This document shows positions 17,942-52,391 of a stretch of DNA of 64,000 nucleotides, piece after piece. The notes under the pieces were generated by a model. That model did no database searches, had not been told where the DNA came from, and worked only from the letters and a program-made list of their open reading frames with translations. Source of the DNA: a virus. Positions within the stretch are counted from its first letter, which is position 1. Every line of letters starts with the position of its first letter. The position numbers and the translations under genes were made by a program. The DNA is taken from IMG/VR virus record IMGVR_UViG_3300001765_000053; one strand, written 5' to 3'.

Positions 17942-17963
17942 ATGATATAATTATTTTTATTTG

Positions 17964-17971
17964 TTTATAAA
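17964..17971 (-). promoter_or_regulatory. Archaeal TATA box (TTTATAAA) of the RHH gene
   Basis: 22 nt upstream of ATG at 17941. Similar boxes 21-23 nt before ATG at 4341-4348, 15731-15738 (with GAAAGA BRE-like), 16038-16045 and 17022-17030. Confidence 0.65.
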
Positions 17972-18010
17972 TATTTGTATTAATACAAATATTTATGTGC
18001 TAATATATTT

Positions 18011-18090
18011 CCAATTATTTACCAATTTTTTAATTTATTTACCAATTTACCCAATTTATTTATCAATTTTTCCAAATTATTTACCCTAAA
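18011..18090. repeat. Degenerate ~10-bp periodic TTTACCAATT repeats
   Basis: CCAATT-like cores at 18011, 18022, 18042, 18051, 18063, 18072 and 18084. Confidence 0.65.
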
Positions 18091-18326
18091 TTTTTTATTT
18101 TGGCTTGTAAGTGCATTATAATACATATTAATTGATTATTCAATTATTTGTCATTTTAACCCCCCCCTTGTTCTTCTTTTTTTTTCTTCTATTATTATTC
18201 ATTTTTCTCACATACTTTTCTCACTACTTAGGTAATTTTCTTATGTATTTTATAAAAAAGAGCATAGGGGGTGTATTTTTACGAATAAACGAATAATGGG
18301 TTTTCTATTCTGTCTTCTTTTCTATC

Positions 18327-18409
18327 TTATATTATATTATAATATATTATATATATAATATTATATATATAAATAATATATAAATAATAATAAATAATAA
18401 AAATAAAAA
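18327..18409. repeat. 83-bp pure A/T tract (candidate DNA-unwinding element)
   Basis: No G or C from 18327 to 18409; (TA)n and AAT repeats; immediately upstream of the MCM-like gene. Confidence 0.6.
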
Positions 18410-18450
18410 GAAAGCAAAACCTTAAAAGGGAAGGAATTTCACCATATTAT

Positions 18451-48862: not shown

Positions 48863-48952
48863 TTTTATTTTAATGTTTTTTGTATCAATATTAGCGAATC
48901 GCTTGAAATGTAATTAAACATATCTTAAATATCAATTACTACAACTAAATTA

Positions 48953-49078
48953 GTAGAACTTGCATTGAGATGTTATAATTAGTAAAATCCATATTCCCCA
49001 GCCCACACCATAAGGTAGAACTTGCACCTATGAAATTATAACTAACCTAACATAACTTTCCCAGCCCAACACTAATCA
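48953..49078. repeat. Two imperfect 62-63 bp tandem units
   Basis: GTAGAACTTGCA at 48953 and 49015; TTATAA at 48973 and 49036; CCCAGCCCA at 48997 and 49060. Confidence 0.7.
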
Positions 49079-49109
49079 AGTTATATTTAACAAAACTATA
49101 ACTTTCTTT

Positions 49110-49528
49110 CTTTATAAAGATAATTATGATTTTTGAAATAGGCTATGGTTAAAAATCAAAAAAATCAGATAAGGTATGGTTAAAAATCAAATTTTTCGAA
49201 TGTCTTATGGTTAAAAATCAAATTTTTCTATGTGAATTTTTAGGCACATCTTATTTTTTCAATTTTTAACCCTACCTTATACGAAAAATCGAATGAGACT
49301 GCCACCCCAATACGAAAAATCGAATAAGGCTACCCCAAAAATCGAAAATTTCGAATGTCCTATGGTTAAAAATCGAATTTTTTTTGTTTTTGGGGTAGCC
49401 TTATTCGAAATTTCTATGTGAATTTTGAGTCACATCTTATTTTTTTTATTTTTAACCATATCATATTTCATTTTTTTAATTTTTTACTATGTCTTATACG
49501 AAAATCCTTAATTACCTTTATAAAGATA
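49110..49528. repeat. Iteron-like direct and inverted repeat block (candidate origin, terminus or packaging site)
   Basis: TATGGTTAAAAATC at 49144, 49175, 49206, 49361; inverted copy ATTTTTAACCATA near 49448; 22-bp perfect inverted repeat 49320-49341/49387-49408; flanked by CTTTATAAAGATA at 49110 and 49516. Confidence 0.85.
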
Positions 49529-49584
49529 AAATGTTAGTTTTTTAGTAACTATATAAATAAATATAGTATTTTGCACATAAAAAA

Positions 49585-50346
49585 ATGGGATATGAAGATT
49601 ATGAAAGACATTCGCCAGATGGTGGCATTTGGACAAGAGTAACAAATGCAGTTTCTGGTGGTGGTATATTTAGAACTCTATTAAGATTTGTTGCTTTAGT
49701 AGGTGCTTTAATTATACTTGGTCTTAATAAAGTTCAATGTTCATTAAATTATGTTGGAAATAACAATCTAACTGGTTGGGAAAATTTTATACTATTTTAT
49801 GATGCAATAGTATATGGATATCAAAGAGCATCAATTTTATTGTGGTCTCAACTTGGAAATTTAAATTCTGATGCGTTGTCTAATTGGGGAGATATAACAA
49901 TAGTTCTTGTTTTTGTTTTCTTTGTGTTCATAGCACTTTACTCACTTGTAAGTATAATAGCAGATTTGATTGATGGAAGTCCAACAGATACTGCACCAAC
50001 TTATTTAAAAGTAATAATTACTATTGGTTTGTTGTTAATATTTAGTTCAGTTTCATATTATACAGCAGAAAAACCAGAAGGAGAATATTTTATTAATACT
50101 AATATAATATTAACTCAACAAGAAAGTCAAATTTGTAAACAATCTGGTGAACTTGGATATTTCACTTCTGTTAGTGCAATCAATGATACAATAATAAAAC
50201 AACCTATTAAAATAAATAATACAATAAATAATACAATGCAAAATACTATAATAGGTAATTCAAATACAACAATATATAATAATACAATCAATCAATCAAA
50301 AGAACAAGATAAATCAGTTCAATTAATAAATATGTTAAACAATTAA
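49585..50346 (+). CDS. Multi-TM membrane protein with N-glycosylation-sequon-rich tail
   Basis: Three hydrophobic segments; NDT, NNT, NNT, NTT, NNT and NQS in the C-terminal part. Confidence 0.65.
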   Translation: MGYEDYERHSPDGGIWTRVTNAVSGGGIFRTLLRFVALVGALIILGLNKVQCSLNYVGNNNLTGWENFILFYDAIVYGYQRASILLWSQLGNLNSDALSNWGDITIVLVFVFFVFIALYSLVSIIADLIDGSPTDTAPTYLKVIITIGLLLIFSSVSYYTAEKPEGEYFINTNIILTQQESQICKQSGELGYFTSVSAINDTIIKQPIKINNTINNTMQNTIIGNSNTTIYNNTINQSKEQDKSVQLINMLNN

Positions 50347-50348
50347 AA

Positions 50349-52391
50349 ATGGGAAAAAAGAAAAGTAAATTATGGTATATAGGAAGTGCTTTATTGGTAT
50401 TTCTTGTATTGGGAATAACATTTTCATTATATAATGGAAATTATGGGGGTGAAAATGCAGAATTGTCTAAAGTTGAAGGTAGTTTTTCAATTGAAACTTT
50501 AAAAGATGATTTTAGTAGTATTATACCATTTAAAACAGATTCAAATAGTCAATCATTTGTGTTTGTAGAAGGAACTAAAAGTGCTTATACTATGTTTAAT
50601 TATAAGTATTTAAGTGGTGGAACTACTGTATTTACACATAAGGCTGGTCAAGTGCAATATATTGGAAGTGCTTGTAAAGTTGGAGATGTTGTAAGAGTTT
50701 TATATTGTGATAATAATCTTAATACAATGTCTTGTAGCAAAGAAATGTTTGTAGATATGTTTTATATTTCAAAAACTGGTGATTATGTAACTATTGGAAA
50801 AGATACTTATAACTTCAATGATAGTTTTTATTTCACTTATAATTGTTATGAATATAAAACATCAACAACTCCAATTTATGAAGAAAGAAGTGTATATGTT
50901 TCAAAAACAAATACTTGTATTACTCCAAAAGAAGCAACTGGTATGACTGGTATTTTTCCATATACAAGTGAAAAAGATTGTTTTACAAAAGTTGGAACAA
51001 TTACAACTCCAATACAATCACCAACAACACCAACAACACAAACATTATCTGGTGTAACAAATCCATATCCAAATAATCAAGTTATTGGTGATAAAGGATA
51101 TTTTAAAGATGTTGTAATTAAACCATCTACTGCTTCAACTTATGATAGTGTAGTTGTTACTGGAAAATTTATTGTTGTTGGAAATCATAGTAAAATATTA
51201 CTTGAAACAACAATTGACCCAGATACAAGAAATATATTTGGTGGTCAATCACAATCTATCGTAACTTCATCTGCAAGTTATAGTGCTTGTGATAAAAGTA
51301 GATATTATGTTGGAAAAACACATTATAATCTTAAAGATGGAGATATAATTGAATTTACATATACACTTGCTACTCCACAAAAATCTGGTGAATATAAATT
51401 GAATTTAATATCTACAAAGGGTTGTTATAATGATGTAAATTATGATGATAAAGCATCAAGTGTAAATTTTTTAATTAACATAAAAGATAAAGTATTTGTA
51501 ACAAAAGATGATACTGATGGAGATGGTAAAAAAGATTTAGATAGTAATAAACAACAACTTGATAATTGTAGATATATAAGCAATCCAGCACAAGAAGATT
51601 ATGATAATGATAATATTGGAGATTCTTGTGATTATTGCCCAATGAATAAAGGATTATCAATTGAAAGTGGTATTGTTGAAAAAAATGGTTGTCACCCTTG
51701 TGAAGGAAAAGCACTAACAGATAGTTGTTGGAAAAAAGATTATAGTGAGTTTGAAATTGGAGACCCAAGATATGATGCAGTTGTAAAATCTGGTGAAGGA
51801 GAACTTACAAATGAAGATTTATTTGCAAAATATCTTGAAGAATTAAAACTTAAAGCAGAATCAGACAGAATAAAACAAGAAGAACAAAGATGTCAATTGA
51901 AGGGTGGTGAGTTTATAAATAATAAATGTGAAATTACAACTACTATGACTTGTGATGAAGCATTAAAAACAAATACTTATAGCACAATAAATGAATTTTG
52001 TTCAGAAACTGAAACACAAACTTGGTGGAATAGTCAATATTGTATTAAAAATCCAAGTGTAATGGAATGTAATCCAAACTATTGTGATGAAAATAAAGAA
52101 CTTGATATTTGTGGTGGAAGTTCAGATGTTTGTTCAATCAATCCAACATCAAGTGTTTGTGGTGGAAGTGGTGCAAGTGAAGAACCAACAACTTTAAGTT
52201 GTAATTCTGGTGAATATAAAACTTTAACTTGTAGTAATGATGAACAAATTATTTCACAAGTTTGTGATACAACAAGTGGAAACTTTATTACAATAGCAAC
52301 TTGTGAAAGTGAGCAATCTTGGTTATCAAAATATGGTAGTTATTTAACTGTTGGTGTTTTGGTTGGAATTGTAGGGGTATTATTTATTTAA
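50349..52391 (+). CDS. Cys-rich membrane-anchored surface protein with thrombospondin type-3-like Ca-binding repeats
   Basis: N-terminal TM; DTDGDG...DNCRYISNPAQEDYDNDNIGDSCDYCP; C-terminal TM. Confidence 0.75.
   Translation: MGKKKSKLWYIGSALLVFLVLGITFSLYNGNYGGENAELSKVEGSFSIETLKDDFSSIIPFKTDSNSQSFVFVEGTKSAYTMFNYKYLSGGTTVFTHKAGQVQYIGSACKVGDVVRVLYCDNNLNTMSCSKEMFVDMFYISKTGDYVTIGKDTYNFNDSFYFTYNCYEYKTSTTPIYEERSVYVSKTNTCITPKEATGMTGIFPYTSEKDCFTKVGTITTPIQSPTTPTTQTLSGVTNPYPNNQVIGDKGYFKDVVIKPSTASTYDSVVVTGKFIVVGNHSKILLETTIDPDTRNIFGGQSQSIVTSSASYSACDKSRYYVGKTHYNLKDGDIIEFTYTLATPQKSGEYKLNLISTKGCYNDVNYDDKASSVNFLINIKDKVFVTKDDTDGDGKKDLDSNKQQLDNCRYISNPAQEDYDNDNIGDSCDYCPMNKGLSIESGIVEKNGCHPCEGKALTDSCWKKDYSEFEIGDPRYDAVVKSGEGELTNEDLFAKYLEELKLKAESDRIKQEEQRCQLKGGEFINNKCEITTTMTCDEALKTNTYSTINEFCSETETQTWWNSQYCIKNPSVMECNPNYCDENKELDICGGSSDVCSINPTSSVCGGSGASEEPTTLSCNSGEYKTLTCSNDEQIISQVCDTTSGNFITIATCESEQSWLSKYGSYLTVGVLVGIVGVLFI

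Follow-up and report, generated by a model that had tools for sequence, protein, structure and literature searches.

A large, helically phased array of putative binding sites between two predicted divergent promoters of a virus-like, probably archaeal element

The 64,000-nucleotide stretch analysed here (IMG/VR virus record IMGVR_UViG_3300001765_000053, referred to below as the window) derives from an uncultured, virus-like and probably archaeal element, and contains a block of about 400 bp of short repeats arranged in 31-bp steps where two sets of genes diverge. The original prediction, made from the window's sequence, had described an iteron-like, protein-binding array that might serve as a replication origin, a partition site, a genome terminus or packaging signal, or a regulator of the two divergent operons. 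We find that the feature is real, reproducible and architecturally conserved. The block most likely separates the promoters of a surface protein operon and a membrane protein operon, and we tentatively favour, at somewhat short of an even chance, the view that it is a shared upstream control region of these two promoters, to which an oligomeric DNA-binding protein would bind cooperatively. Among the roles originally put forward, regulation of the two operons is the best supported, as the palindromes at the block's ends coincide with predicted TATA boxes and the array is linked to the promoter of the same gene, encoding a 299-aa protein, in a relative with 42% protein identity. We infer this functional account as a whole from sequence, and the block is best filed as an unusually large helically phased array of putative binding sites between divergent promoters.

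The array takes up most of a 722-bp gap between the gene for the 299-aa protein, on the minus strand, and a gene for a 253-aa protein on the plus strand (Table 1). When positions 49120–49522 are written in rows of 31 bp, a single register runs across all 13 rows, in which the boxes GGTTAAAAAT, CCTTAT(T/A)CGAAA or TCGAAT, and CTACCCC recur. Exact copies of the 14-mer TATGGTTAAAAATC are found at 49144, 49175, 49206 and 49361, as had been reported, together with a reverse copy carrying one mismatch at 49447–49460, and at least five matches were obtained in none of 100 shuffles of the window. The repeat finder also recovered the expected pair of ATACGAAAAATCGAAT copies, 31 bp apart at 49279 and 49310, and CTTTATAAAGATAA at both ends of the block (49110 and 49516), each end bearing one copy of the palindrome CTTTATAAAG. 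A single 31-mer consensus accounts for just four forward units and one reverse unit: beyond those listed in Table 1, the fourth forward unit lies at 49337–49367, and the forward units match the reference unit at 19, 22, 27 and 31 of 31 positions. The remaining rows belong to other sub-families that keep the same phase. The block is a mosaic of three or four short boxes rather than one iteron; the phased repeats originally described hold, with the iteron-like description corrected on this point.

Larger symmetries are superimposed on these boxes. The module beginning with CTATGTG, noted originally in two copies, was found as a 56-nt family whose second copy (49411–49466) is 88% identical to the first and is offset from it by 186 bp, or 6 x 31. 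Many inverted pairs were recovered, among them one (I4) of 37 nt that is 89% complementary and one (I1) comprising the terminal 110-nt arms, which are 75% complementary. The 22-bp perfect inverted repeat that had been described proved exact when read by hand from the row layout; as single-stranded DNA it folds with −29.9 kcal/mol (z = −7.4), and its sequence is such that it can form a cruciform. A 13-bp perfect palindrome, TCGAAAATTTCGA, is present at 49342–49354. No further copies of the block were found elsewhere in the window.

The 31-bp phasing was borne out by base autocorrelation, in which lag 31 gave the highest value (0.511), followed by lags 62, 124 and 93, and the best value at any lag among 500 shuffles was 0.427. 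Among 1272 tiles spanning the window, the array has the highest power of A/T tracts and AA/TT steps at 10.33 bp, 0.65 where the median is 0.019. Successive centres of the GGTTAAAAAT core, taken in either orientation, are 31, 31, 52, 103 and 83 bp apart, all near multiples of 10.3. The array resembles the window in base composition, with 25% G+C against 24%, and differs in its content of one short word: TCGAA has nine copies in the window, seven of them inside the array, and TCGA was seen 12 times where 32 were expected, with 7 of the 12 again within the array. The element avoids TCGA, yet the array holds most of it, which indicates that the array retains a word otherwise selected against. Over the whole window (1–64000), GATC, CATG, CTAG, AGCT and GTAC were seen 0 times against 46–166 expected, and ACGT once against 15 expected.

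A repeat of this kind might have been collapsed or misassembled, or might mark a genome terminus, and both possibilities had been raised. An independent Logan contig (4373 bp) assembled from the source run spans 49048–51500 and has zero differences from the window; a neighbouring contig of the same run ends at 49051, the site of a single-base variant. A freshwater-sediment run from another study yielded pieces 94–99% identical to the window over 49017–49177 and 49301–49459. None of the runs listed as containing the sequence was an RNA run. Since an independent assembly reproduces the array, it is neither an artefact nor a genome end. In a freshwater-sediment strain from run X3, which is about 95% identical, GAATGTCC is replaced by GTATAAGG at 49354–49360 while the TATGGTT core is intact. 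GTATAAGG is the variant of the neighbouring unit, suggesting conversion between units.

The contigs of homologues of the 299-aa and 253-aa proteins were collected from metagenomes, giving fifteen loci (designated by L numbers), and the sequences flanking the array were aligned among them. From this alignment we read the two CTTTATAAAG copies as the TATA boxes of two outward-facing divergent promoters. The 8-mer TTTATA(A/T)A (TTTATAAA) stands 21–23 nt before the ATG of six other window genes, far more commonly than at other distances, and the placement of TATA about 22–27 nt upstream of the start matches archaeal promoters and the genome's other promoters. Conserved downstream boxes lie where transcription would be expected to start, near 49088 on the minus strand for the left promoter and at about 49547 on the plus strand for the right one. 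The full module, aACTAC-TTTATAAA-N8-(C)GTTGGAA-N8-TAACTAT(A/G), points outward at eleven array ends, six left and five right, which come from six or seven genomes (the window and its repeat-bearing relatives; the right end of L014 was not assembled). In the window's left promoter, GTTATAG occupies the position of the GTTGGAA box of the relatives. These asymmetric flanks, conserved at eleven ends, indicate that the promoters are directed outward; inward-facing promoters, first suggested by A-rich flanks in three relatives, were dropped after the asymmetric downstream boxes had been aligned. The module has no other occurrence in the window, from which it follows that the two operons form a promoter class of their own.

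Two smaller features accompany these promoters. A small hairpin (CTATA-loop-TATAG) at 49549–49566 corresponds to the predicted 5' end of the right transcript, and its stem is kept in L010, L011 and L012 while the loop varies. At several ends of arrays from different genomes, the TATA box is preceded at about 10–20 bp by a box TTTCAAAAATC or TTTTCAAAATCC (49100–49110 and 49500–49515 in the window), which is possibly a promoter-proximal factor site common to the lineages.

Table 1. Features of the array and its surroundings in the window, and repeat units at the corresponding place in relatives.
Feature	Position	Strand	Content	Basis or step
Repeat array	49120–49510	none	13 rows x 31 bp; boxes GGTTAAAAAT, CCTTATWCGAAA / TCGAAT, CTACCCC, both orientations	
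Three successive forward units	49120–49212	+	each with TATGGTT end	31-mer consensus matching
Reverse unit	49454–49484	−	mirror of left-hand forward units	22/31 matches on reverse strand
56-nt module	49225–49280	+	ATGTG..CACAT mini-hairpin, T-run, ATTTTTAACC	family D3
Tandem unit pair	49279–49340	+	ATACGAAAAATCGAAT and G/C-rich tail	family D4
22-bp perfect inverted repeat	49320–49408	none	arms 49320–49341 / 49387–49408 around one forward unit	row layout
Predicted left outward promoter module	49081–49118	−	TATA box TTTATAAA 49118 to 49111, GTTATAG, TAAATATAAC	module alignment
Predicted right outward promoter module	49517–49566	+	TATA 49517–49524, GTTAGTT 49533–49539, TAACTATA 49546–49553	aligned with L010, L011, L012, L001
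Conserved leader, left promoter to 299-aa gene	48945–49089	−	X boxes GTAGAACTTGCAC 48953 and 49015; Y boxes TTCCCCAGCCCACAC 48993 and 49058	
First left-operon gene, 299 aa	47963–48862	−	N-terminal membrane helix, all-beta ectodomain	open reading frame, AlphaFold
First right-operon gene, 253 aa	49585–50346	+	multi-pass membrane protein	open reading frame; five homologues, 52–55% identity
L001 repeats			GTCTATGGTAATTT / GTCATAGGTGTAAAAG	step 30–45 bp; three of seven steps 30–32 bp
L007/L011 repeats			CTATCCAAGTTT, both orientations	step 32 bp
L012 repeats			GTCAAGTTTGATT	step 31 bp
L010/L015 repeats			ATACGAAAA(A)TC units resembling the window's	
L014 repeats (42% protein identity)			at least seven near-identical CTACCCCCTTACCTTRTTCGAAATTTTAAC units abutting TATA box of homologous gene	step 30 bp

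The outward direction of the promoters bears on whether the array is itself transcribed and acts as a structured non-coding RNA or as a series of tandem small transcripts. Its inverted repeats would form very stable hairpins, and the arrays of some relatives have internal TATA-like boxes (TATTATAAAG three times in L001, and two boxes in L011). The window's own array, however, has no internal TATA box, its conserved asymmetric promoter flanks face away from it, no Rfam family was at or near threshold in the window, and the array sequence is too weakly conserved for covariation. Of all the explanations weighed here we regard this as the least probable.

Five close relatives carry a repeat block in the same place, and their plan is that of the window: a promoter, about 270–400 bp of repeats and a mirror promoter. 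What is conserved is this architecture and some of the boxes; most of the repeat sequence is not, and the motifs differ by lineage (Table 1). Steps of about three helical turns nevertheless recur, at 31 bp in the window and L012, 32 bp in L007/L011 and 30 bp in L014. The L014 unit holds all three window boxes, and its best match in the window is the 15-mer CCTTATTCGAAATTT, exact at 49399–49413. Apart from this 15-mer, only L010 has significant DNA similarity to the window's array, aligning locally with 49279–49340 at a score of 48 against a shuffle maximum of 40. The A/T phasing of L001 peaks at 10.3 bp, with a strength that 4 of 300 shuffles reached.

Within a genome, the two ends of the array resemble one another. 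The parts beside each promoter are mirror images, so that each promoter sees the same sites at an equal upstream distance. Compared over the 60 bp that precede their TATA boxes, the two arms of one genome are 55–75% identical, and arms of different genomes average 43%; three of the five within-genome pairs were taken to be one virus on the grounds of a shared or sister sample. Arms that are more alike within than between genomes are expected if both bind one lineage-specific factor.

The quick turnover of repeat sequences between relatives might also fit a functionless, unstable satellite that grows and is homogenised by slippage and recombination in a long, promoter-free spacer. The near-identical units of L014 suggest recent expansion, the swap at 49354–49360 shows one unit's sequence replacing another's in a closely related strain, and the Borg elements carry many fast-evolving intergenic tandem repeats (PMC9879509). 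Against this, a block of similar length occupies the same place in every close relative, its arms are mirror-symmetric relative to the promoters, and the step of about three turns is kept while the content of the units changes. The retention of an avoided tetranucleotide and the conservation of a 15-mer across 42% protein identity point the same way, and we think a satellite improbable.

Two further candidates were rejected. A clustered regularly interspaced short palindromic repeat (CRISPR) array would have unique spacers, and here 31 bp is the total period with no such spacers, and cas genes were not found in the window. A miniature inverted-repeat transposable element (MITE) or other mobile insertion, with the 14-bp flanking direct repeat as a target duplication around terminal inverted repeats, was rejected because the flanking repeats are the promoter module conserved in all relatives; as noted above, the block has no other copy in the window.

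Taken together, the fixed position, arm symmetry, concerted evolution, three-turn step, A/T phasing and retained TCGA argue for a cis-acting, promoter-tied protein-binding array. In the mechanism that we propose, an oligomeric sequence-specific protein, encoded by the virus or its host, would bind cooperatively to boxes that share one helical face, bending or wrapping the DNA so as to set both promoters together. Since these sites are on the upstream side of the TATA boxes, the effect on late structural genes would be slightly likelier to be activation or timing than repression. Protein binding, proposed originally, fits all of the results, and the family scans assigned no protein to the sites.

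Several points weigh against a shared control region. No regulator was found at E ≤ 0.001 when about 120 window open reading frames (ORFs) were scanned against Pfam, PHROGs and NCBIfam. No characterised archaeal operator or activating sequence approaches the 400 bp and about 13 units of the array, the known ones having two to four sites, and replication origins show phased repeats and bent DNA just as typically. The A/T phasing is undetectable in most of the partial arrays of the relatives, and the 31-bp step is not strict in L001, where it ranges from 30 to 45 bp. Finally, the direction and start sites of the promoters are themselves predictions, as is the archaeal host, which we assign from promoter geometry, a PTH2 domain and an RFC-like clamp loader.

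Precedents exist for parts of such an arrangement. Archaeal Lrp-type regulators have clustered sites two or three helical turns apart on which the DNA is wrapped, and the operators of these Lrp/FFRP (feast/famine regulatory protein) family members (Ss-LrpB, FL11, Ptr2) are imperfect, AT-rich, dyad-like boxes on one helix face, bound cooperatively beside the TATA box and B recognition element (PMC2995911). The 31-bp step of the window has the spacing of these operators, and its 13-bp palindrome is a further likeness, but the operators comprise two to four sites in about 100 bp, whereas the window has about 13 units, 400 bp and two promoters. No HTH_AsnC or AsnC_trans_reg match was found at E ≤ 0.001 among the window ORFs scanned. 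In an archaeal virus, the regulator AvtR occupies about 100 nt of the DNA that separates two promoters (PMC5569661). AvtR and the other ribbon-helix-helix regulators of crenarchaeal viruses, SvtR and F55, are encoded by the virus and oligomerise along DNA between or over promoters; unlike the array, their operators are shorter and are not a mosaic phased at 30–31 bp. No ribbon-helix-helix protein was confirmed in the window. None of these precedents is on the scale of the array.

More distant comparisons can also be drawn. The PA and PD promoters of haloarchaeal gas-vesicle genes serve divergent structural operons and have symmetric upstream elements that respond to GvpE, but their spacer is tens of bp with two overlapping sites, in contrast to the window's 400 bp of repeats. 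The homologous regions (hrs) of baculoviruses are arrays of about 30-bp imperfect palindromes in a large viral genome that bind IE-1, act as enhancers and can double as origins; these belong to a eukaryotic virus and are dispersed in many copies, whereas the array is present once in 64 kb in a prokaryotic setting. In iteron origins and control loci (P1 incC/incA, P4 ori/crr), phased direct and inverted repeats co-evolve with their binding protein, and a second array distant from the origin is known. Unlike these, the window's array has no adjacent initiator gene or unwinding element and is framed by the promoters of structural genes. Like the array, the intergenic repeats of Borgs are fast-evolving, non-coding DNA of large archaeal extrachromosomal elements; they are perfect, head-to-tail, A-biased and of independent origin at many loci (PMC9879509). 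The window's repeats, by contrast, are degenerate and lie in both orientations, and the relatives share their location and some of their boxes.

The main rival reading is that the array is a replication element. It might be an origin, or else an additional site for the initiator that cooperates with an origin elsewhere or draws initiator away from it, as in the iteron control loci of plasmids and at the second cis site of phage P4. Similar repeat blocks are common in origins and in control regions generally. Phased direct and inverted repeats, a perfect 22-bp palindrome, the phasing of bent DNA and a divergent strand switch are classic traits of origins, and fast, lineage-specific turnover of motifs is typical of iterons that co-evolve with an initiator. 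The strand switch itself is real, as had been noted, and the GC skew changes sign with the coding strand; for this reason the skew, which had been suggested as a check for an origin, is uninformative. CGAATAA/TTATTCG occurs five times in the window, with two copies in the array and two at 18282 and 18290 in another divergent gap, and the presence of four of the five in two divergent gaps hints at a shared factor.

The repeats themselves point neither way: an iteron origin has multiple direct repeats of one initiator-binding sequence, and repeats are present here, but as a mosaic of several boxes in both orientations. Other properties of the array are less like those of an origin. No AT-only stretch stands out in it that could serve for unwinding. 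More than 22 kb separate it from the nearest replication genes, with the replication module at 1.6–26 kb, and the neighbours of the array encode membrane proteins; neither an unwinding element nor an initiator or replication gene adjoins it. The array also stays at the promoter of one structural gene across deep divergence, as would be expected of a cis-regulatory element rather than an origin. A replication origin, as originally listed, is thus possible but weaker than control of the promoters; we consider a replication role of either kind unlikely, though likelier than any other alternative to control of the promoters.

A better origin candidate is the gap at 17942–18450, which looks more origin-like than the array. 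It contains four 20–21-bp tandem repeats of AATTTATTTACCAATTT, CGAATAA in two copies and a stretch of about 90 nt made up solely of A and T. There is also a G/C-clamped inverted repeat, which includes C8 and G5 runs, and TTTTAACC is followed by a C-run. The gap adjoins the gene for a 734-aa DUF3987-like primase-helicase. It shares eight 7-mers with the array, which is not above background (median 6, 95th percentile 11).

Helical phasing might alternatively reflect chromatin, with each unit positioning an archaeal histone dimer or a wrapping nucleoid protein, or with the curved DNA insulating or tuning the promoters. The units, 30 bp long in L014 and 31 bp long in the window, are near the length wrapped by an archaeal histone dimer, given as 30 bp in PMC10516927. 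The AA/TT periodicity of 10.33 bp is the maximum of the window, with the L001 peak at 10.3 bp, and the block extends over about 13 units. Positioning, however, would not call for the conservation of boxes containing G/C that is seen for CCTTATTCGAAATTT, CTACCCC and TCGAA; the phasing is undetectable in most relatives, and a histone-fold gene was not found in the window. We give an organising role in chromatin little credence. A particular form of it, to which we would attach slightly less weight still, is that a 13-unit, histone-dimer-sized track nucleates a defined archaeal hypernucleosome or wrapped filament in the space separating the two structural-gene promoters, so that host chromatin becomes the late-gene switch. 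If true, archaeal chromatin would gain its first sequence-encoded positioning array, and one borne by a virus.

Recognition of the array in partition, as a centromere-like site, or in packaging was also among the roles first suggested. Short repeats in arrays, recognised by small dimeric proteins, make up many centromere and pac sites, which can overlap promoters, as in the parC type, and the element is large, its contig extending over 116,929 bp. The adjacent ATPase or adaptor genes that accompany partition sites are missing from the window, and genes for ParA, ParM, TubZ, ParB or terminase were not detected in its 64 kb, leaving neither role with a supporting gene there. The neighbours are instead membrane proteins, and the assembled contig passes through the array, which is not a fixed genome end. 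Either function is very unlikely.

In more distant relatives the locus is organised differently. L002, L008, L009 and L013 are without the array. In L008, L009 and L013 (40–49% identity), a 46–59-aa AbrB/SpoVT-like gene faces the 299-aa homologue and adjoins 10–11-bp TCCGAA-like repeats; in L013 (1578–2032), five 10–11-bp TTCTCCGA-like tandem boxes lie beside a TATA-like box. The AbrB-like gene and these boxes possibly form an autoregulated switch in that lineage. An AbrB-type regulator was rejected for the window's array, as a profile of these AbrB-like proteins matched nothing in the window or in the close relatives. The window region had no match in GenBank phages and the motif none in IMG/VR, protein-guided scans of IMG/VR and GTDB genomes found no relatives, and a scan of a single metagenome found two distant loci only, both without an array.

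Between the left promoter and the 299-aa gene lies a conserved leader. Its X and Y boxes are near-invariant in five genomes and have no other copy in the window. In a consensus fold of the minus strand, X' pairs with Y' by way of G-U pairs, and a closing helix of 4 bp covaries (CATA/TATG, TGCA/TGCA, TACA/TGTA); the fold of the plus strand is weak. The single sequence folds with z = −2.8, and the leader has no Rfam match. It is a candidate for a conserved, structured 5' untranslated region.

The 299-aa protein has 16 metagenomic homologues with 38–70% identity. Its AlphaFold model (predicted local distance difference test score, pLDDT, 85) has an ectodomain that resembles tandem Ig-like sandwiches, and a fold search gave weak generic matches only, to pilin and Ig-like domains with a template modelling (TM) score of about 0.3. 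The window as a whole has 23.6% G+C and is densely packed, with about 117 ORFs that are mostly without known function. Those recognised include a UvrD-like helicase, a Sak4-like protein, an HNH endonuclease and a clamp loader, and Mom, PTH2 and LPD29 domains were also found. The best curated match of the clamp loader is to the archaeal RFC small subunit, and its Atlas fold matches are to archaeal RFC and phage gp44 clusters. The nearest Atlas clusters of the 734-aa protein are DUF3987-type primase-helicases of tailed viruses. A tRNA scan found no tRNA. The window has no Shine-Dalgarno motif, its start codons sit within TAAAAAATG, and sigma-70-like promoters are not enriched. Given that TATA boxes stand 21–23 nt before the ATG, the geometry of leaderless archaeal genes, we treat the element as probably archaeal.

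The arrays have a practical consequence for the recovery of this virus family. Contigs of the relatives from k-mer assemblies end 180–390 bp upstream of either gene, within the repeats. Logan contigs of L004, L006, L007, L010, L011, L012 and L015 terminate within the repeat block on one side or the other, and those of L007 and L011, which come from one sample, share an overlap of exactly 30 nt; a Joint Genome Institute (JGI) contig, L001, crosses the entire gap. The arrays are a systematic breakpoint for assemblies with k = 31, and thus break short-read assemblies of the family at a predictable place.

Almost nothing is known of the timing of structural genes in large uncultured archaeal viruses. 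The locus described here is family-wide, clearly bounded and experimentally tractable, with mirror promoters that have a unique core module. If the binding protein were found, the lineage-specific boxes would provide a specificity series with which to study cooperative wrapping and the co-evolution of a protein with its sites.

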